From assembly GCF_024502345.1 (NCBI RefSeq), contig NZ_JALDNN010000001.1: a stretch of 64,000 nucleotides of DNA; one strand, written 5' to 3'. The position numbers and the translations under genes were made by a program. The notes under the pieces were generated by a model, which saw nothing but the letters and a program-made list of their open reading frames with translations, did no database searches and was not told the DNA's origin. The DNA comes from Escherichia coli. GTDB taxonomy: Bacteria > Pseudomonadota > Gammaproteobacteria > Enterobacterales > Enterobacteriaceae. Position 1 is the stretch's first letter, and every line of letters starts with the position of its first letter. Of the stretch, positions 6,801 to 52,904 are shown one piece after another.

Positions 6801-6828
6801 TTGACTCATCGCGCCAGGTAAGTAGAAT
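6801..6828 (+). promoter_or_regulatory. Putative sigma70 promoter of the glyW-cysT-leuZ tRNA operon
   Basis: ttgact (6801-6806), 16-nt spacer, tagaat (6823-6828), about 75 nt upstream of tRNA-Gly. Confidence 0.5.
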
Positions 6829-6901
6829 GCAACGCATCGAACGGCGGCACTGATTGCCAGACGATAATAAAATCAAGTGATTAACTGATTGCTTGATGAA
6901 T

Positions 6902-6977
<76 letters not shown>

Positions 6978-7031
6978 GTTTAAAAGACATCGGCCTCAAG
7001 CGGATGTCTGGCTGAAAGGCCTGAAGAATTT

Positions 7032-7105
7032 GGCGCGTTAACAAAGCGGTTATGTAGCGGATTGCAAATCCGTCTAGTCCGGTTCGACTCCGGAACGCGC
7101 CTCCA
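7032..7105 (+). tRNA. cysT: tRNA-Cys (anticodon GCA)
   Basis: 74 nt ending CCA; anticodon loop gattGCAaatc. Confidence 0.93.
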
Positions 7106-7117
7106 CTTTCTTCCCGA

Positions 7118-7204
7118 GCCCGGATGGTGGAATCGGTAGACACAAGGGATTTAAAATCCCTCGGCGTTCGCGCTGTGTGGGTTCAAGTCCCACTCCGGGT
7201 ACCA
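7118..7204 (+). tRNA. leuZ: tRNA-Leu (anticodon UAA), long variable arm; 3' half is the integration site of the element
   Basis: 87 nt ending CCA; anticodon loop gatttTAAaatcc; T-stem carries a compensatory U-A pair relative to the displaced copy at 34590-34645. Confidence 0.9.
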
Positions 7205-7276
7205 TGGGAAACATCAGAATAATCAAAGCAATAAGCAGTGTCGTTAAACCACCTCCGGGTGGTTTTTTTGTGCCTG
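7149..7276 (+). repeat. attL: direct repeat covering the 3' 56 nt of tRNA-Leu plus terminator
   Basis: About 128 bp, roughly 95% identical to 34590-34719. Confidence 0.85.
7246..7269 (+). terminator. Rho-independent terminator after leuZ
   Basis: Hairpin accacctccgggtggt followed by T7. Confidence 0.7.
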
Positions 7277-7445
7277 AAATTCATGTCCTGTGCATATCCT
7301 GTGCTCACGGGGTGCGATGAGCTGCAATCTCCAGCCTGGCAATGACGAATCGAACGTGTCGCCTCCAGCATAGAGAACCAGGCCGCTTTGCCTGTTTTCC
7401 GGTACGCTTCCGGGAAGGGGGGCCTGCTGAGCAAGCTGTAATGCT

Positions 7446-8186
7446 CTAGCCACCCTGAGTACAAAGTTGCTTAATTCGTGCAATCACCTCATCTCTGTAC
7501 TTCTGGTGTCCGCGCATAGCCCGTGGATGGGCAATTCTGAAACAGATTGCATTACCTGTTTTGAACTCCCATAGCTTCCCCGGAATGACTGAAGAAGTCT
7601 CATAGCCGCCCAGCTCAGTAAGCACCTGTTTTATGATGTAGTCTGTTCTCCGGGCTCCAGATGCAAAGATGATGAAATCAGGCTCAAGGTGTTTAATTTG
7701 TACCGCCAGCAGCTTCAGCGAGGCTAATATGACTTCCTGCACTTCATTTTGAGGGCGATTGAGAGGGGTCAGTCCGTCGTAATCCCACGCCAGTAGATTG
7801 GCATACACGATTGCCTGGGGAAGAATATTAAGCTCCCGGGCCAGCCTGAAATGATATTGCGTGAAGCGGCTACGTGATTTGAGGTTGGTGGTGCCATCAT
7901 TTTGTACCGGAAGATGATTCCTGTAACGATCTACAGCTTCTTCAACCACCTGCCCGATGGTGACGTCAGGTATAAGTCCCAACACCCGTGATATCGTATT
8001 CTTACCATTCAGCGTATTCCAGCCTGCGGTTTCACGTCCAACCAGCATGATTTTTATCGGTGAATGCCAGTATTCTTCAAACGGCACGGGTAAAAAGACG
8101 CCTGAGTATTTATCTTCATTCAGGTTAAATGACTGGGCGTCAACTTCCTGTAATATCCGTTTGTACGCGTCTAATAGCTTTTCCAT
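7446..8186 (-). CDS. Uracil-DNA glycosylase superfamily protein (UDG-like)
   Basis: 246 aa; KIMLVGRETAG resembles the family-4 UDG motif-A region and FRIAHPRAM resembles motif B (HPS-like). Confidence 0.5.
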   Translation of the reverse strand: MEKLLDAYKRILQEVDAQSFNLNEDKYSGVFLPVPFEEYWHSPIKIMLVGRETAGWNTLNGKNTISRVLGLIPDVTIGQVVEEAVDRYRNHLPVQNDGTTNLKSRSRFTQYHFRLARELNILPQAIVYANLLAWDYDGLTPLNRPQNEVQEVILASLKLLAVQIKHLEPDFIIFASGARRTDYIIKQVLTELGGYETSSVIPGKLWEFKTGNAICFRIAHPRAMRGHQKYRDEVIARIKQLCTQGG

Positions 8187-8266
8187 TCTTCAATCCTGCC
8201 CCGTAATAAAAACACCTTCAGATATATATTATCTCCATGATATCAATCAGATACATGAGGATAAAT

Positions 8267-9484
8267 ATGCAAAAATCCTTCCGATTCACCAATTCATCCA
8301 TCAAAGCCCTTCCGGCAAACACAGATACCCGATCTACAGAGCTTGAGGTATCAGATACCGAGGTCATAGGCCTCAAATGTCTCTCAGGTCGAACGGGTAA
8401 CAAACGTTTCCTCCTGCGCTACACATTCCACGGTACCAAAAAAAGTATCAGTATTGGCAGATTCCCTGAAATCGATGTGGGGACAGCCCGTCAGATAGCT
8501 CGCCGTCATAAGGAGGCGATTGCACTTGGAAATGACCCCAAGGCAGAGCGCGATAATTATCGTGCGATGCCAACGCTTAGTGAGTTTTTTCACCTGACCT
8601 ATGTTCCGTTCATCAAGCGCCATAAAAAGTCCTGGGATAAGGATGTTCAGCGTTTCACGCAATACATTGAACCTCGTCTGGGGAAGATACGTTACTGCGA
8701 TCTCAGGGCCAGAGAGATACAACAGGTGCTGTTTGACATGCTGGAGGGGCGTATTCACGGGCAGCAATATGCGCCGTCTACCTGTAACAGAGCCCTTGCT
8801 ATTCTGAAAACGATGGGGCGTTATGCGTTGCGACAGGATGTGCTGGAAAAGAATGAAGCCGATAAGATCCCTTTACTGAAAGAGAATAATCAGCGGACGC
8901 GCTTTTTTGATGCTGATGAGATCAGGCGCATTCTTGACGCTGCTACCCAATATCCCAACAAAGCTGCCGGGGGATTGATAGCCATGTTGTTGTTAACCGG
9001 TACACGCAAATCAGAAATGCTTAATGTCAGGCATGAACATATCGACCGGGCCAATCGTACTCTGTTCATTCCTTATACAAAAAATGGTCGCAGTCGGACG
9101 GTATATCTAAGCGATGCAGCATTATCGATTATTGATGCTATCCCACGAGTTGGCAGTAATCCGTATCTGTTCGCCATTAAGGATAATGGAAAACCGATAT
9201 CGGAACCCCGATGGGCATATGAAAAAATACTGGCACAGTGCGGTATAGACAAGAATGAAGTCTGTTTTCACACCACACGTCATTCTGTTGCCTCTTTACT
9301 GGTTTCGAGTGGTCAATTCAGCCTGTATGACGTTAAAGCACAACTGGCGCATGCCAGTATTCAAAGTACGGAGCGCTACGCGAAATTGACACCAGAGCGT
9401 ATGCGTCAGACCGGGCAGGGCGTAACTGACCTTCTTTTGAACACCGTTACTGCCGGTAACAATGATGATTTTAGCACCCCTTGA
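8267..9484 (+). CDS. Tyrosine recombinase / integrase (P4-like); alternative upstream ATGs at 8237 and 8255
   Basis: Catalytic signature TGTRKSE (R), HTTRHSVAS (HxxR), ERYAKL (Y); RBS gagga before ATG 8267; adjacent to tRNA att site. Confidence 0.85.
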   Translation: MQKSFRFTNSSIKALPANTDTRSTELEVSDTEVIGLKCLSGRTGNKRFLLRYTFHGTKKSISIGRFPEIDVGTARQIARRHKEAIALGNDPKAERDNYRAMPTLSEFFHLTYVPFIKRHKKSWDKDVQRFTQYIEPRLGKIRYCDLRAREIQQVLFDMLEGRIHGQQYAPSTCNRALAILKTMGRYALRQDVLEKNEADKIPLLKENNQRTRFFDADEIRRILDAATQYPNKAAGGLIAMLLLTGTRKSEMLNVRHEHIDRANRTLFIPYTKNGRSRTVYLSDAALSIIDAIPRVGSNPYLFAIKDNGKPISEPRWAYEKILAQCGIDKNEVCFHTTRHSVASLLVSSGQFSLYDVKAQLAHASIQSTERYAKLTPERMRQTGQGVTDLLLNTVTAGNNDDFSTP

Positions 9485-10847: not shown

Positions 10848-11282
10848 ATGCAAACCCAATATGCCTTAAAACAGGCAGGATTAACTCTGCCTGTTACTAA
10901 AGAATTTCAGCAGCATATTACTACTCTTCTGGCAAATCAGGTTTTACAAAAAATAACTGAGGCAGTGGTTATTAATTTCCGCGATCCGGACTACAGTGCA
11001 GAATCCGGGGGCTTTCATCCCGTTGAAATACGGTTTATCCGTAAGAATAATGAATGGTATTTTGATTATGTCACAGATTTTAGTTATATGGGGCGTGTCT
11101 ACCCTGAGCTGGAAAAAGAAATTGATTTTTGCTGGTCGGGGAATTATGTCTTCCATTATCTGATTGGGGATATTTCACTGGCAGCAGAGAGGAATGAACT
11201 CTGGTCTCTGTGGGAGCGTAATTTTATGGAGTATCTCTCTATGGGGATTTACCGGGTAACGGTAACTGTGGAAAGTTGTTGA
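10848..11282 (+). CDS. Hypothetical protein (element cargo)
   Basis: 144-aa ORF. Confidence 0.45.
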   Translation: MQTQYALKQAGLTLPVTKEFQQHITTLLANQVLQKITEAVVINFRDPDYSAESGGFHPVEIRFIRKNNEWYFDYVTDFSYMGRVYPELEKEIDFCWSGNYVFHYLIGDISLAAERNELWSLWERNFMEYLSMGIYRVTVTVESC

Positions 11283-12772: not shown

Positions 12773-13675
12773 TTACGGGGCGTTACTTGGCTGGGTGTAA
12801 CGTTTCAGTGCGGATTGTATATCTTCAGCAAGTTGTTGACGGATTGAGGCCGGTTGTATTACTTCGACATCCGGTATCCAGTATTTCATTAAAGGCATTA
12901 TCTGATCTGTGTGTGTTACACGTGATATCACCAGTAAATCGCCAGACCGGGAAGTATGAATTATTTCCTGTCCTGGCAATAGATGACGGTGGGTAAACCA
13001 CGGAGCAACATGTGCGGAAACTGAAATAAGAACTTCGATAAGGTCTTCGCTATACCAGATACCATCTGTCTTTTCTATTTTTTCATTAATTTCGGGGATT
13101 ATCCTGAAAGAGATATTACTCATGCAAACGTCTTTGACAGATGAGATAACAAAGCTTTTTAATGTACTGTCATGGGCGGCAGCGAGATACCACAATCCGT
13201 TGTCATTAACCAGCCTGTATGGCTCAACAGCCCGAAACTCTTTATCTTTGTAATTAAAATTTACTTTCTTCTGTGACAGGATGGCATCGGATAATACATT
13301 CAGAATTGACATGAATGATCCGCAGTTTTCGTATGGACGTTGTTTTATCAGAAACGGGTTGTTTTTCGTGTTACCTAACAAAATACTCAGTAGTCTGTCA
13401 TCCCAGCGAGGGAACAGCCCTTCAATACCCAGGATGCGCGTGAAATGACGTAAATCAGCATTGCTGCGTTGACCGAGAACACCGTCAGACAGGCGATAGC
13501 GACCATTTTGTCGAATCAGATTAAGATAGGACAGGCGCTGAGTAAGATCACGACGGATAGTTTTTTCGCAAACGTTAAATTCCTCAGATAACTCCCGGAC
13601 GGCTAGTGACTCACCATTGTTCAGGCGAGTTAATATCAATCCGAGTCGATATCCAAGTTTATCGTGCTTACCCAT
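12773..13675 (-). CDS. HTH + WYL-domain-type transcriptional regulator (YafY-like)
   Basis: 300 aa; N-terminal DeoR-like HTH ([21 protein letters not shown]), central region consistent with a WYL domain. Confidence 0.5.
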
Positions 13676-14429: not shown

Positions 14430-17030
14430 TCAGACTGGAAGACAGAATGTCGGATATTTACGGGCTATGATATCCATCAGTGACTTCATTCGCGGTGTTA
14501 CAGAACTAAATTTCATTTGGGGTATTTTTGCTCTTACCGCATTTTTTACATCAGTCACCGTTACTGAATAGCCTTCTGACGTCAGCCATTCAGCAACCTC
14601 TTTACAGGAATAACTTTTTTTATCTTTCAGCATCAGCCCCCATTGGCACTGAGTCAGCGCCCGGAGAAATAGTCTGACTAAAATATCATCACTACGTTTG
14701 CTTCCGACTTTTAGTTTCATATCAGAAAACACCGTCCGGCAATAGAGAAAATCACACCAGTCATCCCAGTCAGCCAGGGTCTTCAGTGTATGCGTTTGCC
14801 GCCAGTCGTCGAAAAGGGAGCGCTGCTGCAGAGCCTCTTCCATATTATCCCATGGGCGGGAAAACATCAGTAAATGCCCTTCATTCATGGCGGGCTGTAC
14901 GGGCTGGCGTTTGAAATCGAATTCCAGATTAAGACGGATATCCTGTTCCCGGGATACCAGATCGCTTTCCGACAGCCACATCTCACGCGTTGATATCAAC
15001 GTACTTCGGGATAAAGTCTGACCGGGTAAACGATTAAGGTAAAGATCTACCATATAGTCGTTATAGTCACTGCGTGGAATATCGGCAGGAGGTTTGACGC
15101 CAGCCCTGGCATGAACAACAGGTTTTCCCTGAATAGCTCTATAGGTTAACTGCCCCCGGGTTTTCATGGCGATAAGCTGGCTGACTTCATGCTTACATGT
15201 CAACATTGATGAACCCGGATCAACAATATCGCACAGCGACTGGAAGCGGGAAGACAGTGGACCGCTCATGTTTATCTTGTTAAGTGGGCAATTTGTCAAA
15301 AAGCCATCGGTTGTGACGCTGACAACCGATGAATCAGAAGGCAAAGCATTCATGAGTTCCCCGGCAACGGCGCGGATAAATCCCGTTACATGCGCAGCAA
15401 AGAATGGCTGAGTAACCGATGATGGTGGGAGGGATCTGTTTAATCCACGGGCAGTATCAAAGGCGGTTTTGGCGCGAAGGCCCTGAGCAAGTTTGCCATA
15501 AAGCGAGTTGCCAATTTCTTTCCAGAATTTCTCCTCCAGAGAACCTTTAATATGGCGATTACGGTTCTCACGGACCTGTTGAACAAAGGGAAGAAACACC
15601 GATGTTGATTCGCTGTTATGTGGGGAGGTGTCACAGATCCAGGGGACGATGATCCCATTATGGATCGTCATCTCTGCCCCGAGCGACAGAGCAAGTTCGA
15701 TTTCAGGTGCCGTTGCCCATGATTCGCCACTTAATGGAAAGAATAACCCATATTGATCGGTCCGAACCGGCAGGCTGGGATAGGGAACTGATTCCGGGAA
15801 CCGAAATGTGACAAGCGCAAATCCCATTACATGCCCACAGTAATCGTCCGGATTTTTACTGAGGCGGATGTTCCCGTAATCGGGTGTGAGGATATCTAAT
15901 AGCCCGGTGGTATACGCTCCAGCCAGATCGTAGTCATACCAGTGATCAGACGGTGTAACCCCCATCATAAAACACTCATTGCGTCCGCCGTGGTAACAGT
16001 TGATCGGGAACGTTTCAAACAACTCTCTTGAAGGAACACTGGCGGGGTTTTTAATCGTCCGGAATGCCTGTTTCTCCGTGAGCCAGAGTTCACGGGTTTT
16101 AATGTGTGTCCCAAGGCAGACTTCAGGAGACATATTGTTTTCTTTAAGTGTTTTGGTGAACCGTGAAACTGCCATCGCCCCGATGGTGGCGGGGACACGA
16201 TCAATCATCAGCTCCCGGGCGCAAAAATTGCGAACCTGTAAAGCATAACGAACCGCAATCTCGGCATCCCGCAGAGCATAGGCTTCAAACCCTGCTCTGT
16301 CGCCCAGAAGATATTCACGCATATTGGTTATGGAATAAGGTGCAGGAATGGTGAGTTTGGGAAGACCCAGTAATTCACCACATTCAGCCAGACCCATACC
16401 CCCGGGAGTGATAAGCAGTGTATCGATGAAAGCTACGTTACTGCAACGCGGAGGGGAAGTTCGTTTGTCAAACATTATCTGTTCAGTCTTTACGCGACGT
16501 TCCTGCTGTTCATCAAAATCGATACCGTAACGATTTTTGAAGCTGCTGACAGTACCGCGTATTCCTTTCAGAAGAATTTTGTAGTCTGACCAGAAATTGG
16601 CAAAGGAGGCGATATCCGCACGAATGAAATGCGCATATATATTAATAATACCGGGCCATTTTGTAATCACACCCGTTTCAAGAAGCGGTGTAATCGTTTG
16701 ACAGAGAAATTCCTTAAAAGACAGCCGGGATTTTTTCTGTGAGTCAGGTGGATAGATAATGTTCGATATACCTGTATTATCGGGTAAGATAACATAACTC
16801 TGATATGACAGAATATCATTCTGTCGTGTTTCAGGGTTGAAAACATATTCGGTATCAAAACCGATATGGAGTGTCAGGTCACTTGAAATAACAGATACTT
16901 TTTTTGATGCAGGTGGTATCACAGGATAATCATCAAGCGTTTTAGGTCTTTTACGATTGAGCGCTGGCTCTGAAGTCACGGACTGATACCCCGAGGCGGC
17001 AGCGAGGATGTCCTGCAAATTATTGCTCAT
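14430..17030 (-). CDS. Family-B DNA polymerase with 3'-5' exonuclease domain (piPolB-like); alternative start at 17093
   Basis: Exo I FDTE, Exo III YALRD, motif A DYDLAGAYTT, motif B KEIGNSLYGK, motif C VTTDGF, downstream KTRG, all in canonical order; RBS ggag before ATG 17030. Confidence 0.85.
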   Translation of the reverse strand: MSNNLQDILAAASGYQSVTSEPALNRKRPKTLDDYPVIPPASKKVSVISSDLTLHIGFDTEYVFNPETRQNDILSYQSYVILPDNTGISNIIYPPDSQKKSRLSFKEFLCQTITPLLETGVITKWPGIINIYAHFIRADIASFANFWSDYKILLKGIRGTVSSFKNRYGIDFDEQQERRVKTEQIMFDKRTSPPRCSNVAFIDTLLITPGGMGLAECGELLGLPKLTIPAPYSITNMREYLLGDRAGFEAYALRDAEIAVRYALQVRNFCARELMIDRVPATIGAMAVSRFTKTLKENNMSPEVCLGTHIKTRELWLTEKQAFRTIKNPASVPSRELFETFPINCYHGGRNECFMMGVTPSDHWYDYDLAGAYTTGLLDILTPDYGNIRLSKNPDDYCGHVMGFALVTFRFPESVPYPSLPVRTDQYGLFFPLSGESWATAPEIELALSLGAEMTIHNGIIVPWICDTSPHNSESTSVFLPFVQQVRENRNRHIKGSLEEKFWKEIGNSLYGKLAQGLRAKTAFDTARGLNRSLPPSSVTQPFFAAHVTGFIRAVAGELMNALPSDSSVVSVTTDGFLTNCPLNKINMSGPLSSRFQSLCDIVDPGSSMLTCKHEVSQLIAMKTRGQLTYRAIQGKPVVHARAGVKPPADIPRSDYNDYMVDLYLNRLPGQTLSRSTLISTREMWLSESDLVSREQDIRLNLEFDFKRQPVQPAMNEGHLLMFSRPWDNMEEALQQRSLFDDWRQTHTLKTLADWDDWCDFLYCRTVFSDMKLKVGSKRSDDILVRLFLRALTQCQWGLMLKDKKSYSCKEVAEWLTSEGYSVTVTDVKNAVRAKIPQMKFSSVTPRMKSLMDIIARKYPTFCLPV

Positions 17031-18055: not shown

Positions 18056-19186
18056 TCATTTTTTCGTGTCATAACTTTCTATGACCTGAGAAACCACTGC
18101 GTGCGATGTCGCTGCATTGTGAAAAGCGTAGCGACGGGTCGCCGTGAGTGAATGGTGATTTAGCAGATGGGAAGCGATTGCAATATCCCCGGTCGCCTGT
18201 AGTACCCGGGTGGCAAAGGTACGGCGCAGGTCATGCATCCGCAGGTTATCAATGTTGGCATCCCGACAAATACGGGCAAAGGTTGCACGCGGATATGCCA
18301 GAGGGCGGGCATTGTCGGTTAGTTGTGGAAAAATGTAAGTTTTGCTGAGCATCAGGTCTTGCTGGCACTGGACAACTGCAATGGCTGGAGGTGCAAGTGG
18401 GCAGGTGAAAGGGTGTCCGGACTTTGTATCAGGCAGTATGAGTTGATGCATATCCGGGTGCCAGTACTCCCATTTCAGGGTACATACCTCACCAATACGC
18501 ATCCCCGTATAAAGAGCAAGCAATATAGAATCAGCTGCCGGTGTTTGCAGCGCTGTTGCCGCGTCAATAAAGCGCGGGATTTCTGTCGCTGATAGTGTGC
18601 GATAGCGAATGTTATTTTCTTTCAGATAGCGGACATGTGACATCGGGGAATGTGTGATCCATCCAGCACGTACTGCCAGAGAGCATATTTTGGACAATAT
18701 TGCGAGGATACGGTTTACTGTTGACGGACGTAATTTTTCCCGTAAGCCAGCAGCATATTGTTCTAGTTCCCCTGCCGTGATGTCGCGAAGTTGCCGCTTG
18801 CCCCAGAACGGGCGAACGTAGAGGTTGAGTTTTGACAACTCTGACTGAGGACTCTTTTTATACAACTGCAAATCCGGTAGCCACAGGTCATTGATGGCCT
18901 GTTCCACAGTGAATCGACGGGACTGAACCGCAAGACGATTTTTATCAGCAAGCAGTTTCATCACATGCTGACGGGCATCCTCAACGCAGAGCTGAGGGAA
19001 CTGACCCAGGGTTTCATATATACGCTGATTGTTTATAGTGGCACGAAAGGCCAGCGTGATCCGATTGGGATACACCAGAGCACGCAGGTTTTGGCAGTGA
19101 ATATCACGGTATTCCTGACAACCCGTGAGGGGATGTGGAAGTTGGTGAAGTGATTTGTTGCTGAAACGCAGATCCAGAATAGGCAT
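18056..19186 (-). CDS. Second tyrosine recombinase (XerC/D-like integrase)
   Basis: 376 aa; RIGEV (R), HDLRRTFAT (HxxR), TRRYAFH (Y). Confidence 0.8.
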   Translation of the reverse strand: MPILDLRFSNKSLHQLPHPLTGCQEYRDIHCQNLRALVYPNRITLAFRATINNQRIYETLGQFPQLCVEDARQHVMKLLADKNRLAVQSRRFTVEQAINDLWLPDLQLYKKSPQSELSKLNLYVRPFWGKRQLRDITAGELEQYAAGLREKLRPSTVNRILAILSKICSLAVRAGWITHSPMSHVRYLKENNIRYRTLSATEIPRFIDAATALQTPAADSILLALYTGMRIGEVCTLKWEYWHPDMHQLILPDTKSGHPFTCPLAPPAIAVVQCQQDLMLSKTYIFPQLTDNARPLAYPRATFARICRDANIDNLRMHDLRRTFATRVLQATGDIAIASHLLNHHSLTATRRYAFHNAATSHAVVSQVIESYDTKK

Positions 19187-19329
19187 CGTATTTCTCCTGT
19201 AAATGACACTGGAAAAATACGATGTGAGGTTATAGTCTGCCAGTTACAGCTTTCACAGTTCATCAGGTGAAAAAACGCAGATTCGGATATAATGGCAACA
19301 CAATTCCATGTCGCCATTATATTAAGAAA

Positions 19330-20460
19330 CTACAGTTTCATGATCTTGTTCGCTATTTTTTCGAAGTAAACCTCATTCTTAAGAAGAGTGATATTGTTTG
19401 TTTGAACACCCAGACCACTGGAGGTTGACTGGAAGTTGAGTGAACCACTTATCACTGTGGACTTTCCTGATAAAAATGAAATCAACTCCTTGGAAGATGG
19501 TGCCCACTCAGGGTTTAAGAGTAATGCAATATAGATATATGTCTTACGAAGCAATTGTTCTATATCTTTTTTATGCCCTGTAGTGTTTTGCTTACCTTTA
19601 ATGCAAATAGATTTGATTATGAACTCATCAGGGCTGGTTAAAGGCGTTTTAAACTCACTCAGTGATCCATCGTTATGAATGACTTCATAAGGCAGCATAG
19701 ATAAAATGATCAATGCAATCATTTTAGGATGATAAAGGTAGTTATCACGAATGATTTTTCCTGCCTTCATTGTATTGAGCGTTGTTTGAATAAATACAAA
19801 AAGATATTCAGAGCAAAAGTAACAAAACACAAGCCAGGATAGGTCAATGGATGGAATGTTAATATCCTTAGGTAGTTTGTTTAGCCAGTATTCAGACTTC
19901 AAAAAGGTCCTGATTTCAACAGTATATTCATGCATTTTTGCGCTGAAATCAAGCATTGCTACTTGACCTGATTGTTCCGTAACTGTGTGGTCTATAAATG
20001 TTAGTGTATTGCACATTTTATCCAGCGTGTTTTGAAAACAAGAAAGGAGTTCGGCATTATTATTACCATTAACCGCAGATGAAAGTTCAGTTTTAATAAA
20101 TGCATCCAGTAGCATACAGATTTCTTTCGGAATGACATTTTTACGGGATTGCTGTGAATAGAAATGTACTGCCAGTAAATTAAAGGCAGTGCACTCCTTT
20201 TTTAACCATTGTTCGAGCACTGGGACGTGCTGAAAAAAATTGATATGCTTAGCAGTAGATGCTGATGGAGATAGTACATGAAGAATATCTACAGCAGGCT
20301 TCATTTGCAATATTTGATCGGATTCGGTAGTCGTCATTAGTTCCAGTAATTGCTGTTCAGAAAATAGTTTAGACAGGTGATCAATGTCTTTTTGGTATTG
20401 ATTAAGTTTTGTTAAATTCCCCGGTATACGGGTTACATTGTTTTTCATTTTCTCGAACAT
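19330..20460 (-). CDS. Hypothetical protein, AT-rich, no recognisable domain
   Basis: 376-aa ORF in a low-GC block; Lys/Asn/Ile-rich. Confidence 0.5.
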   Translation of the reverse strand: MFEKMKNNVTRIPGNLTKLNQYQKDIDHLSKLFSEQQLLELMTTTESDQILQMKPAVDILHVLSPSASTAKHINFFQHVPVLEQWLKKECTAFNLLAVHFYSQQSRKNVIPKEICMLLDAFIKTELSSAVNGNNNAELLSCFQNTLDKMCNTLTFIDHTVTEQSGQVAMLDFSAKMHEYTVEIRTFLKSEYWLNKLPKDINIPSIDLSWLVFCYFCSEYLFVFIQTTLNTMKAGKIIRDNYLYHPKMIALIILSMLPYEVIHNDGSLSEFKTPLTSPDEFIIKSICIKGKQNTTGHKKDIEQLLRKTYIYIALLLNPEWAPSSKELISFLSGKSTVISGSLNFQSTSSGLGVQTNNITLLKNEVYFEKIANKIMKL

Positions 20461-20966
20461 AATTTTATCCTCGTTTGAATTATTACACTGATTTAAAAAG
20501 TAGCATGTCGTGTTAGCGAGGTAATCCTAAAACGTGAATGGCAGCAGGGGCAAGCTTGAATCTGCGTAAGGATATGGCTTGAATTTAATGGTGTAATCAG
20601 TGAGTTAGAGGCTTATAGCCATTTAAATACAATAAGTTATGATAATATATGGCGGGTGTAAATCGGTTAGTTTTTATGGTTAAAATATGAGCATTGTGAG
20701 ATTTGAGATATGATGGTTTTTAAATTACATACAAGTTACCCCTGATGATCAGTATTAATACCAGAATGATACATGCGAGCAGCACCCAATCCTGTACTAT
20801 TTATGATGGCTATACAAGGCTGAAACTTTGAGTCGTATGTTGCCAGGAGGATTAATGTCCACAAGGCCCAGATAGAATGATTTCTCAGATATTAAAGTTG
20901 AAACTTATTAACTATGTGAGAGGCTGATATTTATTCAGTCTCTCATTTGTTTTTATCGTTTTAAAG

Positions 20967-22202
20967 TTAAAAGGAAATAAATAATGCCTTCCGCCGATGA
21001 ATCAGTGTACTGATTTCTCGAAAATCAGCCTCAATACTACCAACATCACCAAAGACTTCACCACTAATCTCTCTTCGATTTTTCATGAAATTGGTGCTTA
21101 ATAAGCTTTCTTTTTTTAGTGTCACTAATTTTGGTTTTATATCGTTATAGAAATGCTTACGGCTTACCCTGATGCTATGAATCGAGTAGTAAACTGTTTT
21201 ATACATCAAAAATATAAGTAACTGGCCGAGAAGATATTCTTTTTCAATGTATTTATATTGAGAGGATTTTTCGCGTTTCGCCAGGTAGAAAACATGAGGT
21301 GCGATGATGGTGGGGATGAAATCCAGTGCTGGAGAGGTTTTGGTTTTTTCTGTTTCTCTTCCGGATTGAAGATGTTGAAGTACAGAGTATACAATGCTTA
21401 AAATTATGGCGTTACTTATATTATTAATTGCAGTTGGGTAAATATGCAGATTGCTTATCAATTCTGAAAGGCAAAGTAAAACACCAGTGATGTTGGGTTT
21501 TCTGCCGGAGATTGTGGTGCTGTTGAAAATGTGACGATTCTTACGACTTATATTGACAAGTTTATGAGTGCAGAACTCTATATGTTCGACGATTTTATCT
21601 TGACTATTTTTAATGTATTTTGAAATGTTAGTGATCCGGCCATTCAACGTTAGTTCATCAAGCAATATATCATTTTTAATATTGCGAATTTCATCGCAAT
21701 GTTCACATTGAGAAACTATCTCATGTAATACATAACTCGACGTATTGCGGGGTGACGCTGATATGTAATCTAAAATAGAAGGCTCGATTTTGATTTTTTG
21801 TTTGTATTTTTTAATGCACTGTTTGATTGTTTTTTGTAGAGTATTTGAGATGTGTTTTTTATATTCTTTTAGAAAATCTTGCTCTAAAAAGAGTGAGGAG
21901 AAGATCAACTGCTGGCGAGATAATTTAATCTCAGGCTTGATCAATTTAATCCGAAAAACTCTTCCCTCCAACTCATAGCTGAACATGGAAGATAAGTCAT
22001 AGTGGGGTGATAAATGTTCGAGTAACGACATTCGTGTATTCATTAGCCGCTTGAATTTATGGTCAGCATACATAAGTGTTTTTTTTATTTGCTCATCATA
22101 AAGTGGGCCGATAGCGCAGTTGGCAATACTCATTCTATCCGGAGACCTCCAGTCAGCAGGGGAATCACATTGACGGTCATCATTACTATCAAAGGGCATC
22201 AA
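20967..22202 (-). CDS. Hypothetical protein, AT-rich, no recognisable domain
   Basis: 411-aa ORF in a low-GC block; no Walker or nuclease motifs seen. Confidence 0.5.
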   Translation of the reverse strand: MMPFDSNDDRQCDSPADWRSPDRMSIANCAIGPLYDEQIKKTLMYADHKFKRLMNTRMSLLEHLSPHYDLSSMFSYELEGRVFRIKLIKPEIKLSRQQLIFSSLFLEQDFLKEYKKHISNTLQKTIKQCIKKYKQKIKIEPSILDYISASPRNTSSYVLHEIVSQCEHCDEIRNIKNDILLDELTLNGRITNISKYIKNSQDKIVEHIEFCTHKLVNISRKNRHIFNSTTISGRKPNITGVLLCLSELISNLHIYPTAINNISNAIILSIVYSVLQHLQSGRETEKTKTSPALDFIPTIIAPHVFYLAKREKSSQYKYIEKEYLLGQLLIFLMYKTVYYSIHSIRVSRKHFYNDIKPKLVTLKKESLLSTNFMKNRREISGEVFGDVGSIEADFREISTLIHRRKALFISF

Positions 22203-22505: not shown

Positions 22506-24029
22506 ATGAACGACAAAATCAGTCAGGACACGATCAACAAAGCCCTGTGGGCCGCGTGTGATACGTTCCGTGGCACCATCAGTGCTGATACCTATAAAGA
22601 CTTTATCCTTACCATGCTATTCCTTAAGTACATTTCGGATGTCTGGCAGGATCACTACGACGAATATAAAGTGCAATATGGTGATGAGCCGGAACTGATT
22701 GAAGCGATGATGGCGAACGAGCGCTTCGTGTTGCCGAAAAGCGCCAGTTTCTATGCGTTGTACGAGCGACGTCATGAGCCGGGCAACGGTGAGCGTATCG
22801 ATCAGGCGCTGCATGCGATTGAAGAAGCCAACGGCACCAAACTGAAAGATGCCGGGAAAAGTGTCTTCCAGGATATTTCGTTTAACACTGACCGTCTGGG
22901 CGAAGAAAAACAGAAGAACACCATCCTGCGTCAGTTGCTGGAAGACTTTGCCGGTGAAGATCTTAACCTGAAGCCAAGCCGTGTCGGTACGCTGGACGTT
23001 ATCGGTAATGCTTACGAATATCTGATCAAAAACTTTGCTGCCAGCGGTGGGCAGAAAGCCGGGGAATTCTATACCCCACCGGAAGTTTCGGATCTCATCG
23101 CTGAACTGCTTGATCCTCAACCCGGTGATACAATCTGCGACCCGGCCTGTGGTTCCGGTTCGTTGCTAATGAAGTGCGGGCGTAAAATTGTCTCAGGACA
23201 TGATAGCCGCAACTATGCGTTGTTCGGTCAGGAAGCGATTGGCTCCACGTGGTCGCTGGCGAAAATGAACATGTTCCTGCACGGCGAAGATAACCACAAA
23301 ATCGAGTGGGGCGATACCATTCGTAACCCGAAGTTGTTGGATAAAAACGGCGACCTGATGCTGTTTGATATCGTGACCGCAAACCCACCGTTCAGCCTGG
23401 ATAAGTGGGGCCATGACGAGGCCGAGAATGATAAGTTTGGGCGTTTCCGTCGCGGTGTACCGCCGAAGACTAAAGGGGATTACGCCTTTATCTCGCATAT
23501 GATCGAAACCCTGAAACCGGGAACGGGTCGTATGGGCGTAGTGGTGCCGCACGGTGTGCTGTTCCGTGGCTCCAGCGAAGGCAAAATTCGTCAGAAGCTG
23601 ATTGATGAAAACCTACTCGATGCGGTGATTGGCCTGCCTGAAAAACTGTTCTACGGTACGGGTATTCCTGCTGCAATTCTGATTTTTAAAAAGCAGAAAG
23701 TGGATGACAAGGTGCTGTTTATCGACGCCAGCCGTGAATTTAAGGCAGGTAAAAACCAGAACCAGCTCAGCGCAGAAAACATCGAGAAAATCGTCAAGAC
23801 CTACCGTGATGGCGATAGCGTCGAGAAATATGCCTACCTTGCCAGCCTGAAGGAGATTCAGGACAACGATTACAACCTCAATATTCCGCGCTATGTCGAT
23901 ACCTTTGAAGAAGAAGAAGATATCGATTTACTTGCCGTTCGTGCTGAGCGGGAGGAATTGAAAGCGGAACTGGCGAAATTGGAAACGCAGATGGCGGGTT
24001 ATCTGGAGGAGCTGGGTTATGGTGCCTAA
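22506..24029 (+). CDS. hsdM: Type I restriction-modification N6-adenine DNA methyltransferase subunit
   Basis: 507 aa; SAM-binding DPACGSGSLL and catalytic NPPF (VTANPPFSL). Confidence 0.9.
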   Translation: MNDKISQDTINKALWAACDTFRGTISADTYKDFILTMLFLKYISDVWQDHYDEYKVQYGDEPELIEAMMANERFVLPKSASFYALYERRHEPGNGERIDQALHAIEEANGTKLKDAGKSVFQDISFNTDRLGEEKQKNTILRQLLEDFAGEDLNLKPSRVGTLDVIGNAYEYLIKNFAASGGQKAGEFYTPPEVSDLIAELLDPQPGDTICDPACGSGSLLMKCGRKIVSGHDSRNYALFGQEAIGSTWSLAKMNMFLHGEDNHKIEWGDTIRNPKLLDKNGDLMLFDIVTANPPFSLDKWGHDEAENDKFGRFRRGVPPKTKGDYAFISHMIETLKPGTGRMGVVVPHGVLFRGSSEGKIRQKLIDENLLDAVIGLPEKLFYGTGIPAAILIFKKQKVDDKVLFIDASREFKAGKNQNQLSAENIEKIVKTYRDGDSVEKYAYLASLKEIQDNDYNLNIPRYVDTFEEEEDIDLLAVRAEREELKAELAKLETQMAGYLEELGYGA

Positions 24030-25266
24030 GGGGTGGAAACGAGTACCGATTAAGGATGTGTGCGAGTCTATAATCGATTGCGTAAATAAAACAGCTCCAG
24101 TTGTTGATTATGAAACTCCCTTTAAGATGATTCGTACCACGAATGTACGTAATGGAAGGGTTAATACTGAAGACGTCAGATATGTGACTGAAGACACTTA
24201 CCTGCAATGGGTTCGACGCGGAAAACCGCAAGTAGGTGATATCATCTTTACACGTGAAGCACCTGTAGGAGAAGCAGGTGTCCTGCAAGATGCTGAAGGT
24301 ATTTTCCTCGGGCAAAGAACGATGATGTATCGAGCTGATACCTGCCTTTCAGATAACTATTTCTTGTTCTACTCGTTATCAAGTCCCTTCTGCCAGAAAC
24401 AAATTGAAGATTTTAGCAATGGCGGTACTGTAGCTCATATGAGAGTTCCAGATTGCGGTGAGATATTGATCAATCTACCGCCTTTCCTCGAACAAAAGAA
24501 AATCGCCCAAATCCTGTCAACCTGGGATAAGGCGATTTCGGTGACGGAAAAGCTTCTCACCAACAGCCAGCAGCAGAAAAAAGCCCTGATGCAGCAATTG
24601 CTTACTGGGAAGAAACGCTTGCTGGATGAGAATGGGACAAGGTTTTCTGAAACTTGGAAATTATATGCCTTATCGAAATTATTTCAGAGAGTTACGACTA
24701 AAAACAATGGAAAAAGCAACAATGTTGTAACCATTTCTGGACAACATGGTTTGATTAAACAGGAAGACTTTTTCAAGAAAACAGTCGCATCAGATACCCT
24801 TGATGGTTATTTCTTATTAAAAAAAGGGCAGTTTGCTTACAATAAAAGTTACTCTAATGGTTATCCGATGGGTGCAATAAAAAGATTAAATCGATATCCA
24901 GAGGGAGTAGTAACAACTCTGTATATATGTTTTGAACTTACTACACCCAAAAAATCATGTGGTGACTATTGGGAGCATTATTTTGAGTCAGGGCTTTTGA
25001 ATAACAGTTTGTCTCAAATTGCTCATGAAGGTGGACGGGCTCATGGCTTGCTAAATGTAAAACCTTCGGACTTCTTTTCATTAAAAGTTGCGGTTCCTGG
25101 CTTTGAAGAGCAACAAAAAATCGCATTAGTTCTGTCCGCTGCCGACACCGAAATCTCCACACTGGAGAAAAAACTCGCCTGCCTGAAAGACGAGAAGAAA
25201 GCCTTGATGCAGCAACTGCTGACCGGGAAACGTCGGGTGAAAGTGGATGAGGCGGTTGCCGTATGA
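24019..25266 (+). CDS. hsdS: Type I restriction-modification specificity subunit
   Basis: 415 aa; two target-recognition halves each followed by the conserved repeat KKALMQQLLTGK(K/R)R; overlaps hsdM stop. Confidence 0.88.
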   Translation: MVPKGWKRVPIKDVCESIIDCVNKTAPVVDYETPFKMIRTTNVRNGRVNTEDVRYVTEDTYLQWVRRGKPQVGDIIFTREAPVGEAGVLQDAEGIFLGQRTMMYRADTCLSDNYFLFYSLSSPFCQKQIEDFSNGGTVAHMRVPDCGEILINLPPFLEQKKIAQILSTWDKAISVTEKLLTNSQQQKKALMQQLLTGKKRLLDENGTRFSETWKLYALSKLFQRVTTKNNGKSNNVVTISGQHGLIKQEDFFKKTVASDTLDGYFLLKKGQFAYNKSYSNGYPMGAIKRLNRYPEGVVTTLYICFELTTPKKSCGDYWEHYFESGLLNNSLSQIAHEGGRAHGLLNVKPSDFFSLKVAVPGFEEQQKIALVLSAADTEISTLEKKLACLKDEKKALMQQLLTGKRRVKVDEAVAV

Positions 25267-25946
25267 AACTGACGAAAAGCGGTCCACTGACTGACCGGGA
25301 AATCGACTGGCTGGAAGAAATATTAATGAAGTATGGAATGGATGATTCTGTACTCTGTTTCTCTGAGCTGGATGGATTGCTGACGGCGATTTTATCAGGT
25401 CCAAATATGGTTTCACCCAATATCTGGCTGAGTGCTATTTGGGGAGGAGGCGATTATCATCCGAAATGGTCATCTGAGAGAGAGATGGAGCGTTTTGTCA
25501 GTCTGTGTTTTCAGCATATGAACGATATCGCTGGTTGCCTTTATGACGCCCCTGAACTGTTTGAGCCGATTTTCAATGAGCGTGAGGTAAAGGGGGAAAA
25601 ATATACCATTGTGGAAGAGTGGTGTTTTGGTTATATGAAAGGAAAGTCACTGGATGACTGGTCTGGTCTTCCCGGTGAGTTACGGCCTTCTCTGGAAGTG
25701 ATCGCTCTTCATGGCGTGGAGAAGAATTTTCCTGTACTTGAGAAAATGACCGGAGAGCAGTTTGAGAAAAGTATTTCCCTTATTCAGCCTGCTGCACTGG
25801 CACTTTATCAGTACTGGTTGTCAGTGAGAATGTCAGAGGCATCATCCCGGCCTGTTCCAGTGAAGGGGGCAGAAAACATGCCCGGGCGAAATGACCCGTG
25901 TCCGTGTGGCAGCGGTAAAAAATTTAAGAAGTGCTGTCTGCATTGA
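25263..25946 (+). CDS. YecA-like (UPF0149) protein with C-terminal SEC-C metal-binding motif, embedded between hsdS and hsdR
   Basis: 227 aa; C-terminus [20 protein letters not shown]; alignable along its length with chromosomal YecA at 34841-35506. Confidence 0.75.
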   Translation: MKLTKSGPLTDREIDWLEEILMKYGMDDSVLCFSELDGLLTAILSGPNMVSPNIWLSAIWGGGDYHPKWSSEREMERFVSLCFQHMNDIAGCLYDAPELFEPIFNEREVKGEKYTIVEEWCFGYMKGKSLDDWSGLPGELRPSLEVIALHGVEKNFPVLEKMTGEQFEKSISLIQPAALALYQYWLSVRMSEASSRPVPVKGAENMPGRNDPCPCGSGKKFKKCCLH

Positions 25947-25995: not shown

Positions 25996-28900
25996 ATGAT
26001 GAACCAGACGTACACGCCAAAATTCCAGGAAGAATACAGCGCCAAAATTCCGGCACTGACGTTACTGACCAGCCTCGGCTGGACGTTTTTATCTCCGAAA
26101 CAGATTATGGATTACCGGGGCTATAAACAGGATGAGGTGGTGCTGCGTCCGGTTCTGCGTGAAGAGCTGTCGAAGCGTTCCTTTATGGCGGGTGGCAAAA
26201 CCTGCCAGTTATCGGAAAAAGCACTGGATAACCTGATATCACAGGTCTGTTCTCCGGCGCTGAATGAAGGGCTGCTCAAAGCCAATGAACGGATGTATAA
26301 CCATCTGCTCTACGGTATCGCCGTCACGGAGTTTGTCGATGGCAAGAAGGTCAACCCCACCATTGCGCTGATCGACTGGGAACATCCGGAAAATAACCAG
26401 TTCCACTTTACTGAAGAATTTACGGTATTGCGGTCAGGTGGTGTTGAAACCCGGAGGCCAGATATTGTCTGCTTTGTTAATGGTATCCCGCTGGCTGTTA
26501 TTGAAGCGAAAAGCCCGGCTGGTCATGGCAAGAAAGGGCCAACCATTGACGAGGGGATATCCCAGAGTATCCGCAACCAGTTCAACGATGAAATCCCGCA
26601 GCTGTTTGTCTACAGCCAGTTATTACTTTCGATTAACGGTCATGACGGGCGCTACGGTACATGCCATACGCCAATGAAATTCTGGGCGGCATGGCGCGAA
26701 GAAGATATTACCGATGCGCAGATGTATGCTCTGCGCAACCATCCTTTATCGACTGAACAAATTCATGCGTTGTTTGATCATCGTCCATCAGCCGATCTCA
26801 ACTGGTACCAACAGTTAATCGCCGCCGGTGAACTGGCTGTCAGTGGACAGGACAAACTGCTCATCAGCCTGCTTTCGCCGGAACGTCTGCTGGAGATGAC
26901 CCGCTTCTTCACTCTGTTTGATAAAAAGACCGGGAAAATTGTCGCCCGCTATCAGCAGGTGTTCGGTATTAAAAGACTGCTGGAGCGCATCAGTACCCGC
27001 AGACCCGATGGGGGCAGGGAAGGTGGTGTTATCTGGCATACCACCGGCTCTGGCAAATCGTACACCATGGTGTTCCTCAGCAAGGCGCTGATTCTTCATG
27101 ACAGCCTGAAGCGGTGTCGTATCGTGGTGGTGACGGACCGTATCGATCTTGAAGAACAGCTCAGCAGTACCTTTGCATCCGGCGGCGAGTTGGCCGGGAA
27201 AAAAGACAAAGCCAATGCAATGGCGACATCCGGGCAGATGCTGGCGAAACAGATTGGCTCCGGTAAAGAACGCATCATTTTCACCCTAATCCAGAAATTT
27301 AATTCAGCGACAAAACTTCCTGAATGCGTCAATACCAGCCCCGATATCATCGTTCTGGTTGATGAAGGACACCGTAGCCAGGGTGGTGAGAACCATGTGC
27401 GAATGAAACTGGCACTGCCGAACGCCGCCTTTGTGGCATTTACTGGTACGCCATTGCTAAAAGAAGATAAGACCACCAATAAATTCGGACCGATTGTCCA
27501 CGCTTATACCATGCAGCGAGCGGTAGAAGATAAAGCCGTTACACCTTTGCTGTATGAAGAACGTATTCCCGACCTTGAGGTTAACGATCGGGCAATAGAT
27601 GCCTGGTTTGATCGTATTACCGATGGGTTAAGCGAAGCGCAAAAAGCCGACCTGAAGCGTAAATATGCCCGTAAAGGTGAGGTTTATAGTGCAGATGATC
27701 GCATCCGTCTGATCGCACTCGATATCGCCACGCACTTCTCGAAGAATATTGATGAGGGACTGAAAGGCCAGCTTGCCTGCGACAGCAAGATTTCCGCCAT
27801 CAAATATAAAAAGTATCTTGATGAAGCCGGGTTGTTTGAGTCAGCTGTAGTTATCAGCCCGCCGGATACCCGGGAAGGGAATACCGAAGTGGATGAAAGC
27901 AAACTGCCGGAAGTGACGAAATGGTGGAAGGATAATGTCGGCACGCAGGATGAGTCTGTGTATACCCGTAATGTCATCAGTCGTTTCGATACCGATGAGA
28001 AGCTCAAATTGCTGATAGTCGTTGATAAACTGCTCACCGGGTTTGATGAGCCGAAGAATACCGTGCTGTATATCGACAAGCCGCTTAAGTCCCACAACCT
28101 TATCCAGGCGATTGCGCGGGTGAACCGACTGCATCCACTAAAAAAGTTCGGTCTGCTGATTGATTATCGCGGTATTCTGGCTGAGCTGGACACGACTATC
28201 GGCAAATATCAGGACCTCGCCTCCCGAACTCAGGGCGGATACGATATCAAAGATATTGACGGGCTGTACAGCGCCATGAGCTCTGAATACAAGCGCCTGC
28301 CGCATCTGTATAACCAGCTGTGGGCCATATTTGCCGGTGTTAAAAACAAAAATGATACTGAGCAGTTACGTGCGGTACTGGTGCCTAAAATGGAAGAACG
28401 TGACGGAGAGATGGTCGATATCCATCAGAAAACCCGTGATGATTTCTTCGAGGCGTTAACGGCCTTTGCCGGATGCCTGAAAGTGGCACTGCAGTCCGCT
28501 ACCTTCTTCACCGACAAGAGCTTTACGGAACAAGACCGAAATCTCTATAAAGAAACCGTAAAACAGATGTCCAGCCTGCGCCAGTGGGCGATGCAGGTAA
28601 GTGGAGAGCAGGTCAATTATGACGACTACGCTGAGCAGGTGAAAAAACTGCTGGATAAGCATGTCACCGGCGTTGAAGTTCGTGAACCGGATGGCGTGTA
28701 TGAAGTCGGTAAAATGGGCAAGAGCGAAAAGCCCGAAGAGTGGGACAACAATAAAACCCGCAATGAAACCGACATCATTAAAACCCGTGTGACAAAGATG
28801 ATTGAGCAGGAATTGCGTGATGACCCGTATGCTCAGGAGGCATTTTCAAAACTCCTGCGTATGGCTATCGAAGAGGCTGAAAAACTGTTTGACCATCCGC

Positions 28901-30035: not shown

Positions 30036-30093
30036 CTTATCAATATGAGTTCTTAAGAGTTTGGTCAGTCTCGTTAATGCAGGGAGTATAATA

Positions 30094-34589: not shown

Positions 34590-34719
34590 ATTTAAAATCC
34601 CTCGGCGTTCGCGCTGTGCGGGTTCAAGTCCCGCTCCGGGTACCATGGGAAAGATAAGAATAAAATCAAAGCAATAAGCAGTGTCGTGAAACCACCTTCG
34701 GGTGGTTTTTTTGTGCCTG
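34590..34719 (+). repeat. attR: displaced 3' half of tRNA-Leu plus terminator (direct repeat of 7149-7276)
   Basis: Contains tRNA 3' 56 nt ending CCA at 34645, with no 5' half upstream; terminator hairpin at 34691-34712. Confidence 0.85.
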
Positions 34720-34840
34720 CAACTTGTCGTTACACCCTCCTTAATTTTTAATCACCGGCAAAGCCACTCAAAAAGTATCTCTGATACGGACCGGCATGTA
34801 AGATAGGTGCTGGCGAGTTGAGATCCACAAGGAAAAACGT

Positions 34841-35506
34841 ATGAAAACGGGACCGTTAAACGAAAGTGAGTTGGAATGGCTGGACGATATTCTGACCAAA
34901 TACAACACTGACCACGCCATCCTTGATGTGGCGGAGCTGGACGGTTTATTGACGGCGGTGTTGAGTTCTCCGCAAGAGATTGAACCGGAACAGTGGCTGG
35001 TTGCCGTGTGGGGTGGGGCTGACTATGTGCCGCGCTGGGCGTCAGAGAAAGAGATGACGCGCTTTATGAACCTGGCTTTTCAACATATGGCCGATACCGC
35101 AGAGCGTCTGAACGAATTCCCGGAGCAGTTTGAGCCGTTATTCGGCTTGCGAGAAGTTGATGGCAGCGAGCTGACGATTGTTGAGGAGTGGTGCTTTGGC
35201 TATATGCGGGGCGTGGCACTTTCTGACTGGTCAACATTGCCCGATTCGTTAAAACCAGCGCTGGAGGCGATTGCGCTGCACGGTACTGAGGAAAACTTCG
35301 AGCGGGTAGAAAAGATGTCGCCAGAAGCGTTTGAAGAGAGCGTAGATGCCATTCGACTGGCGGCGCTTGATCTACATGCGTACTGGATGGCGCATCCGCA
35401 GGAAAAAGCTGTTCAGCAACCGATCAAAGCAGAAGAGAAACCGGGGCGTAACGATCCTTGCCCGTGCGGTAGTGGTAAGAAATTTAAGCAGTGCTGCCTG
35501 CATTAA
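34841..35506 (+). CDS. yecA: UPF0149 family SEC-C motif protein YecA
   Basis: 221 aa; C-terminal [20 protein letters not shown]; conserved position next to leuZ/tyrP. Confidence 0.88.
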
Positions 35507-52848: not shown

Positions 52849-52874
52849 TTCTCCCGATTTCCTCAATTGAAATG

Positions 52875-52904
52875 AACCCGATGATCTGCGCATCGGGTTT
52901 TTTA
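52875..52904 (+). terminator. Rho-independent terminator after cheW
   Basis: Hairpin cccgatg...catcggg followed by T6. Confidence 0.7.

Follow-up and report, generated by a model that had tools for sequence, protein, structure and literature searches.

The window analysed here is a stretch of 64,000 nucleotides of Escherichia coli DNA (assembly GCF_024502345.1, contig NZ_JALDNN010000001.1). An intact leuZ gene for tRNA-Leu(UAA) stands at one end of an island in this window, and a partial leuZ copy stands at the other end. Within the tRNA the two copies differ at a single base pair of the T stem. The locus raises the question whether this pair marks the part of the gene that was brought in by the element or is a strain polymorphism of E. 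coli.

The intact and displaced leuZ copies differ at T stem pair 50-64

The tRNA genes at the left end of the island and their candidate promoter are as follows.

6801–6828, + strand: candidate sigma-70 promoter of the glyW-cysT-leuZ operon, TTGACT-16-TAGAAT (consensus scan, 10/12 matches; a pattern match only)
6902–6977, + strand: tRNA-Gly gene glyW, host, upstream in the operon (ARAGORN, Rfam, K-12 annotation of the same cluster)
7032–7105, + strand: tRNA-Cys gene cysT, host, upstream in the operon (ARAGORN, Rfam, K-12 annotation of the same cluster)
7118–7204, + strand: chimeric intact tRNA-Leu(UAA) gene leuZ, with U50 at 7178 and A64 at 7192 (ARAGORN, Rfam)
Partition of leuZ, + strand: 7118–7148 host-only, 7149–7177 shared core, 7178–7204 element-derived

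The tRNA-Leu at 7118–7204 scored 57.6 bits with Rfam (gathering score 29). It forms a class II cloverleaf with a long variable arm, the anticodon UAA, A73, an encoded CCA and intact stems. The T stem consists of G49-C65, U50-A64, G51-C63, G52-C62 and G53-C61, of which 50-64 is the second pair. When compared with K-12 leuZ, the window gene differs at tRNA positions 50 and 64 only. The first-pass annotation had reported T7178 and A7192 in the intact tRNA against C34619 and G34633 in the displaced copy, and the coordinates, bases and numbering were all found to be right. Its claim that both changes sit in one T stem pair and keep Watson-Crick pairing agrees with the cloverleaf, which places 7178 and 7192 at positions 50 and 64.

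Both versions of the tRNA were folded. U50-A64 and C50-G64 leuZ gave an identical cloverleaf as the minimum-free-energy fold (−35.1 and −36.6 kcal/mol respectively). Of the single-change intermediates, C50/A64 is predicted to misfold and U50/G64 to be weaker. By hand count, the 56 nt of tRNA in the repeat contain about 11 complete base pairs. If two changes were placed at random, both would hit a single pair in ~11/1540 cases, or 0.7%, and Watson-Crick pairing would be restored in about one-third of those. Since a random hit of this kind is well under 1%, the double change in the T stem is not due to chance.

Eight differences partition the two copies of the attachment repeat

7149–7279, + strand: attL copy of the direct repeat, 131 bp (repeat finding and pairwise alignment)
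7149–7177, + strand: identical core of attL, attR and empty sites, 29 nt; tRNA positions 31–49, i.e. anticodon loop, 3′ anticodon stem and variable arm
34590–34722, + strand: attR copy of the direct repeat, 133 bp (repeat finding and pairwise alignment)
34590–34645, + strand: displaced native leuZ 3′ fragment within attR, with C50 at 34619 and G64 at 34633

The repeat starts at tRNA position 31 and extends ~75 bp beyond the CCA end. Its length had been understated earlier; the true span is 131 bp at attL versus 133 bp at attR. The copy called attL here is the 'attR' of the pipolin literature.

The 56 nt of the repeat that belong to the tRNA show two differences only, T7178/C34619 and A7192/G34633. 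Six more separate attL from attR: 7212C/34653G, 7215C/34656A, an AA indel at 34662–34663, 7245T/34688G, 7255C/34698T and 7277A/34720C. All eight partition cleanly. The tRNA-proximal copy is of element type throughout, and the distal copy is that of K-12 and of an empty-site strain, E2863. The attR copy is 100% identical to positions 31–76 of K-12 MG1655 leuZ together with the next 67 nt. When window positions 6900–7148 are joined to 34590–34900, the empty site of E2863 is recovered but for 4 SNPs over 560 nt, all of them outside the tRNA and the repeat, and attR is identical to E2863. Alignment with element-free leuZ thus gives an exact match of the displaced copy in both strains.

The element is an enterobacterial pipolin

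The first-pass annotation did not name the element. The island (~7149–34722) is a canonical enterobacterial pipolin at the published site, the tRNA-Leu between pgsA and yecA. In the window, pgsA-glyW-cysT-leuZ lie on one side of it and yecA on the other. The genes of the island and its right flank are listed below.

7446–8186, − strand: conserved 246-aa protein of undefined function at the left end of the pipolin (phrog_29550; 96–100% identical beside the same integrase elsewhere)
8237–9484, + strand: tRNA-adjacent tyrosine integrase (Pfam Arm-DNA-bind_3, Phage_int_M and Phage_integrase; NCBIfam, PHROGs)
10848–11282, + strand: DUF2787 protein, pipolin core gene (PGAP name in near-identical loci)
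12773–13675, − strand: HTH-WYL regulator, pipolin core gene (PADLOC WYL models)
14430–17030, − strand: piPolB, primer-independent family B DNA polymerase, 866 aa from the PGAP start (published motif positions); the ORF (887 aa) reaches 17093
18056–19186, − strand: second tyrosine recombinase (PHROGs and related family matches; IntP2 type per the pipolin literature)
22506–24029, + strand: hsdM, type I restriction-modification (PADLOC and family matches)
24019–25266, + strand: hsdS, type I restriction-modification (PADLOC and family matches)
25263–25946, + strand: YecA-like PDC-S12 gene between hsdS and hsdR (PADLOC)
25996–29283, + strand: hsdR, type I restriction-modification (PADLOC and family matches)
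30061–31932, + strand: DUF262/HEC-06-like defence gene (PADLOC)
31991–33118, + strand: PDC-S26 defence gene (PADLOC)
33223–34404, + strand: Mrr-like nuclease-domain protein (PADLOC)
34841–35506, + strand: host yecA, flanking the attachment site (NCBIfam-like match and synteny)

Comparison of piPolB with PDB sequences gave no match, and Pfam gave a weak, marginal DNA_pol_B_2 match only. Relatives in the databases are named simply 'DNA polymerase' or 'hypothetical' (PGAP 'DNA polymerase' in near-identical loci). As these sources gave little, membership was decided from the motif positions in the literature. When residues are numbered from the 866-aa start, D59-T-E61, D368 and K613-H614-X8-K623-T-R625-G fall exactly at the positions published for E. 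coli piPolB, where these residues define, and were mutated in, the primer-independent PolB. The pipolin core set comprises IntSXT, DUF2787, WYL, piPolB, an excisionase and IntP2 (PMC11551731). The gene order in the window (integrase, DUF2787, WYL, piPolB, second tyrosine recombinase) is that of the published enterobacterial core; the IntSXT and IntP2 labels are assigned by position from the same paper (PMC11551731) and not by sequence classification.

A tblastn search of the integrase against 50,697 phage records returned nothing above 30% identity, and a known phage or satellite was ruled out on this ground. Integrase together with attL was found in 355 of 5,426 complete E. coli genomes. The closest of them, OY754834, has a left end 99.9% identical to that of the window and different cargo. 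Complete E. coli genomes in which leuZ is occupied number roughly 1,670. With the E. coli and Enterobacterales pipolins (reference strain 3-373-03_S1_C2; Redrejo-Rodriguez 2017, Flament-Simon 2020, Mateo-Caceres 2024) the island shares the KH-X8-KTRG piPolB, core synteny, defence cargo and att-like direct repeats over the tRNA-Leu between pgsA and yecA, and no structural difference was seen.

Some further features were observed in the window. The YecA-like PDC-S12 protein (25263–25946) is 57% identical to the product of host yecA (34841–35506) at the flank of the attachment site, and its gene may be an old capture of flanking DNA. The region of the second recombinase (18056–22202, − strand) continues into two ORFs of 376 aa and 411 aa, both without a family match, which lie in the AT-rich stretch (GC 0.34–0.38) at 19–22 kb. 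The sRNA C0465 (RF00116) was found by Rfam at 52868–52945 (− strand, 111.6 bits) and is unrelated to leuZ.

The element-type 3′ half is a native allele in other genera

The U-A T arm was searched for in one genome per species, which gave 29 loci, and in IMG/VR, which gave 33 more. Full-length leuZ with U50-A64 is present in Citrobacter (many species), Kluyvera, Pseudocitrobacter, some Enterobacter, Raoultella, Yokenella and Buttiauxella, i.e. in 20+ species of other enterobacterial genera. The tRNA version of the element is thus a natural allele in service elsewhere.

The sequence 3′ of leuZ is genus-specific: AAAGATAAGAATAAAATC in E. coli, AAAGAACAG... in Citrobacter and AAAGCAAAG... in Kluyvera. 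The spacer signature AAACATCAGAATAATC follows the same integrase and 246-aa gene (93–100% amino acid identity) in E. coli, in Buttiauxella warmboldiae and in a metagenomic contig. The exception is C. koseri, where the same integrase and left-end gene stand next to a native-type spacer. The right end of the island, ...TGATCCT[G/A]CGTAGA|ATTTAAAATCCC, occurs also in C. koseri, C. braakii and K. intermedia. This recurrence of spacer signature and right end together with the element fits an attP-borne origin and does not fit a polymorphism of the host. The earlier description of the tRNA as a chimera with an element-borne 3′ half holds in this respect: AAACATCAGAATAATC follows the integrase across hosts, and the native spacers differ by genus.

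Other arrangements at leuZ were also encountered. In strain 2017C-4173W12 (NZ_CP030768.1, 3001–4450) an apparent prophage with a 336-aa tyrosine integrase and a DUF4224 protein supplies U50-A64 with a Citrobacter-type 3′ETS, and the same junction occurs in several IMG/VR contigs. In the loci collected, leuZ position 31–32 borders on at least five different types of right end. In contig IMGVR_UViG_3300029517_000042 (~2100–2700) a partial leuZ after another right end (...CATTGATAGT|TTTTAAAATCCC) is followed by a pipolin left end, the 246-aa gene and the integrase, an order that looks like the junction of a tandem array. In Buttiauxella noackiae and B. warmboldiae the 5′ half of leuZ has G7 and A13 (GCCCGGGTGGTGAAATCGG), and the pipolin-adjacent 3′ strand has U66; if C66 is the native base in Buttiauxella, the rebuilt tRNA of these species may have a G7-U66 wobble pair.

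Probable integration at leuZ and the point of strand exchange

From the partition of the repeat, the identity of the element and the linkage in the population (see later section), leuZ of E. coli has very probably been the target of conservative recombination by a tyrosine integrase, through which the ~27.5-kb pipolin was inserted and supplied the U50-A64 3′ half. Chromosomal leuZ would have served as attB, and the attP of the element would hold the part of leuZ that runs from position 31 onward, together with the 3′ external spacer and the terminator. The strands would have been exchanged inside the 29 nt that both sites share, with the anticodon loop as the likeliest place. In the expressed tRNA, the sequence 5′ of the core would then come from the host and that 3′ of it from the element, and the 3′ half, spacer and terminator of the host would have been displaced by ~27.4 kb to the far end of the island. 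The integrase at 8237–9484 is the presumed catalyst.

Because the tRNA-proximal variants are all of element type and the distal ones all of host type, a conservative exchange must lie in 7149–7177 (tRNA positions 31–49). The crossover had been placed 5′ of position 50, and it can now be bounded to this identical stretch. Positions 31–49 are invariant in all 66 copies collected, and no natural variant narrows the exchange point. Anticodon-centred sites (class A) are one of the two common classes of tDNA sites in the Islander paper, the T stem/acceptor junction being also common. Given that class A sites are common and that the match begins at position 31, where the anticodon stem has its base, exchange in the anticodon loop would be expected from the sequence.

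A free attP in circular form was sought in IMG/VR; only integrated junctions and the one apparent tandem junction were found, and the element's own att sequence is deduced from integrated junctions. The expected attP would consist of the island right end (...GATCCTGCGTAGA), ATTTAAAATCCC... with U50-A64, the AAACATCAGAATAATC spacer and the island left end.

The Islander signature, an intact tDNA and a displaced fragment in the same orientation with a tyrosine integrase gene between them, is present in the window. As in other tRNA- and tmRNA-targeting islands, a tDNA fragment in attP would restore the gene and displace its 3′ fragment, probably at an anticodon-centred class A site. The window differs from these islands in that its shared block does not stop at the tRNA but continues for ~75 bp and takes in the sequence of a sponge sRNA and the terminator of the operon.

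Islands with tyrosine integrases that target tRNA and tmRNA genes and carry a tDNA fragment in attP were reportedly described by Reiter in 1989 and Williams in 2002. Phage 21 and e14 are said, from the work of Campbell and colleagues, to replace the 3′ end of the host gene icd with a divergent functional copy, in which sequence differences mark the element-derived part as they do at leuZ. That target is reportedly protein-coding with synonymous or conservative changes, in contrast to the compensatory stem pair of the tRNA.

The first-pass annotation had taken the T stem difference to confirm the integration mechanism directly. The footprint is consistent with conservative site-specific recombination, and this part of the claim stands; a footprint is no demonstration, and the wording was too strong. 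In the pipolin literature, integration and excision of E. coli pipolins were still unconfirmed in vivo as of 2022. The eight-site partition and the population data provide natural-history evidence for site-specific pipolin integration in the anticodon region.

The mechanism, in which islands rebuild the tRNA gene they split (the basis of Islander), and the presence of pipolins at tRNA-Leu are already known. The pipolin papers examined make no mention of the T stem difference in the repeat, of an exchange point in the anticodon region or of 3′ETS-leuZ in the repeat. The foreign-type T stem pair, the sponge RNA in the att repeat and the allele switching (see later sections) are unreported details; they are testable and would not surprise a specialist.

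The integration recorded in the window may have been ancestral. In that case the whole locus would have been gained here later, by homologous recombination in the flanks or by descent, and the window would be an indirect record of the event. This is a real possibility, which partly overlaps with integration as set out above and leaves the origin of the U-A half unchanged. OY754834, with its near-identical left end and different cargo, is in its favour, as are the shuffling of alleles among closely related left ends (see below) and the horizontal transfer and cargo exchange reported in the pipolin literature.

Distribution of the two alleles in E. coli and mosaic attL sites

The population counts refer to the 5,424 complete E. 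coli genomes with a match, which were searched by BLAST with queries designed to separate the allele combinations by identity band. Exact C-G leuZ was found in 5,292 of them and exact U-A leuZ in 121. The U-A tRNA joined to attL-type downstream sequence was present, within 1 mismatch, in 86 genomes. The U-A tRNA joined to native downstream sequence was found as a full gene in no genome at ≥99% identity; empty sites score 98.7% against this query, which corresponds to exactly the two T stem mismatches, and they carry C-G. With the query trimmed to position 31, so that fragments also compete, the result was again none at ≥99%. The reciprocal product, with U-A in the displaced fragment, is thus absent. 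U-A leuZ is always accompanied by downstream sequence of element type. K-12, the empty-site strain E2863 and the 5,292 genomes bear out the earlier statement that C50-G64 is the native state of leuZ.

A second type of left end, missed by the first-pass annotation, is a mosaic attL in which a C-G tRNA is followed by the element-type spacer. At least 210 complete E. coli genomes that carry this family of islands have it, including strains 63-2, CP53, 13C1065T, S30, 2273-PO3 and 1506. Islands with U-A and with C-G are interleaved among left-end lineages. Left-end divergence between U-A and C-G islands is 1.3% for the window and 63-2, 1.5% for F5505-C1 and 13C1065T, and 3.9% for G5 and 1506, and F5505-C1 and 13C1065T have the identical integrase protein (WP_024169776) with different alleles. 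This interleaving indicates that the att-proximal allele has switched several times. The switching is likely to have occurred by conversion from attR, or by C-G donor tracts ending in the 20-nt identical stretch from position 64 to +8. Since the allele switches, the footprint can be erased or created without integration; the reading of the window is unaffected. U50-A64 together with a spacer lacking AA makes it easy to recognise an origin in another genus, and also any subsequent conversion of the att site.

The mosaic sites bear on a different placement of the exchange, beyond the T arm, in the interval from position 64 to spacer +8. A C-G attL with element spacer would then be the normal product, and U-A would have come by homologous recombination with a donor flank from another genus. 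Such mosaics are indeed the commoner type in E. coli (at least 210 genomes versus ~86–121), and the T stem/acceptor junction is counted by Islander as a common class. If the host has C-G, an exchange at this place cannot yield an attL with U-A, and it would give no reason for the identity of att with the tRNA from position 31 on. No genome has the reciprocal fragment (U-A with native spacer), attR of the mosaic strain 63-2 is likewise C-G, and the upstream flank of the window is ordinary E. coli, with 1 SNP in 249 nt versus E2863. Exchange 3′ of the T arm is therefore very improbable, and integration within the anticodon region remains the preferred reading.

Two other accounts of U50-A64 fare worse still. 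That it is a minority E. coli leuZ allele independent of the island is hardly credible: the allele is recurrent (the 121 genomes above), but it is joined to the native 3′ spacer in none, and the U-A genomes listed or fetched all have occupied sites (most with a second leuZ fragment, and G5 with a pipolin whose attR is deleted). The allele-combination queries over the 5,424 genomes gave no support to polymorphism, and it was rejected; an element-free strain with U-A, the case named earlier as speaking against an element-derived pair, was sought and not found. That the copies were identical at integration and attL changed later by mutation and compensation is scarcely tenable: compensatory double changes are known in tRNA stems, but U-A with a spacer lacking the AA insertion occurs also in the same island family and natively in other genera, six further linked spacer differences separate the copies, and of the intermediates U-G would cost EF-Tu affinity (+0.4–0.5 kcal/mol) and the C-A mismatch misfolds.

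The rebuilt tRNA is probably functional

Besides leuZ, E. coli is not known to have a gene for tRNA-Leu(UAA). In strain G5 (NZ_CP060065.1) the U-A gene is the sole leuZ sequence left. In this strain a deletion associated with IS1 has cut hhe short and fused it to tar; the right end, attR and everything from yecA onward are gone, and the island is locked in.

The genera with native U-A leuZ have translation machinery near-identical to that of E. coli. In the measurements of Schrader and Uhlenbeck on EF-Tu binding, ΔΔG for pair 50-64 in tRNA-Leu is 0.0 kcal/mol for U-A and +0.1 for C-G (PMC3239215, Table 2). C-G is −0.2 on average, U-G costs 0.4–0.5 and G-U 1.4 kcal/mol (PMC3239215, Table 2). 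By these values the swap between U-A and C-G is near-neutral for EF-Tu and the intermediates are not. The native occurrence of U-A elsewhere, its presence as sole copy in G5, the EF-Tu values and the unchanged predicted cloverleaf together suggest that the rebuilt U50-A64 tRNA-Leu would function in E. coli.

A sponge RNA lies within the attachment repeat

The 67 nt after K-12 leuZ are annotated as the sRNA 3′ETS-leuZ, a sponge for RyhB and RybB that is released by RNase E. Its presence within the repeat had been missed in the first-pass annotation.

7205–7269, + strand: element-borne 3′ETS-leuZ copy, 65 nt (homology to K-12 b4759; hairpin 7246–7265 and T run)
34646–34712, + strand: native 3′ETS-leuZ with terminator, 67 nt (67/67 identical to K-12 b4759)

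The att repeat holds the entire 3′ETS-leuZ and its terminator, and integration would swap the sponge allele along with the tRNA 3′ half. The expressed sponge would thus be the 65-nt copy of the element, and the native copy lies behind the island.

The element copy differs from the native one at 5 places: 2 substitutions and a 2-nt deletion in the 5′ third, 1 change in the terminator loop, and T7245. The G-to-T change at 7245, at the 3′ edge of the RyhB-pairing block, is seen only in the window and in OY754834; all other copies have G. A comparison of 46 variants of the sequence, drawn from many genera and from several families of elements, shows hardly any change in the block AATCAAAGCAATAAGCAGTGTCGTG or in the terminator stem. 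Variation is found at positions +8 to +13 and in the hairpin loop, and the extra AA occurs in E. coli only. AATCAAAGCAATAAGCAGTGTCGTG is complementary to RyhB and RybB and is kept in the attL copy. Thus, with reference to K-12 b4759, the attR copy is identical and the attL copy keeps AATCAAAGCAATAAGCAGTGTCGTG and the terminator, whereas the copy presumably expressed here is element-derived and is changed in the 5′ third, in the terminator loop and at 7245.

The predicted duplex with RyhB has −45.8 kcal/mol for the native copy, −42.7 for the window copy and −46.5 for the common element type, with T7245 costing ~3 kcal/mol; with RybB the native and element copies are alike (−26.7 vs −26.8). These energies are crude whole-molecule predictions that ignore internal structure, and they were used only to judge retention of the pairing block.

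A link from integration of mobile elements at leuZ to the sRNA sponge circuit was not found in the literature searched. Replacement of the 3′ETS-leuZ allele by leuZ-targeting elements would provide such a link, and one that is easily testable. Every such element (pipolins as well as at least four further types of integrase or right end) might carry its own sponge and terminator allele in attP, with differences that measurably change the abundance or activity of the sponge and so alter iron and envelope stress regulation. This is unlikely; if it were true, regulation would be altered in ~7% (pipolins) to ~30% (all leuZ occupants) of E. coli strains.

A pattern scan found the terminator hairpin at attL and missed that at attR (34689–34712), in which one loop base is different. 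RNAfold predicts both hairpins (−13.2 kcal/mol at attR), and the miss is taken as a quirk of the scanner.
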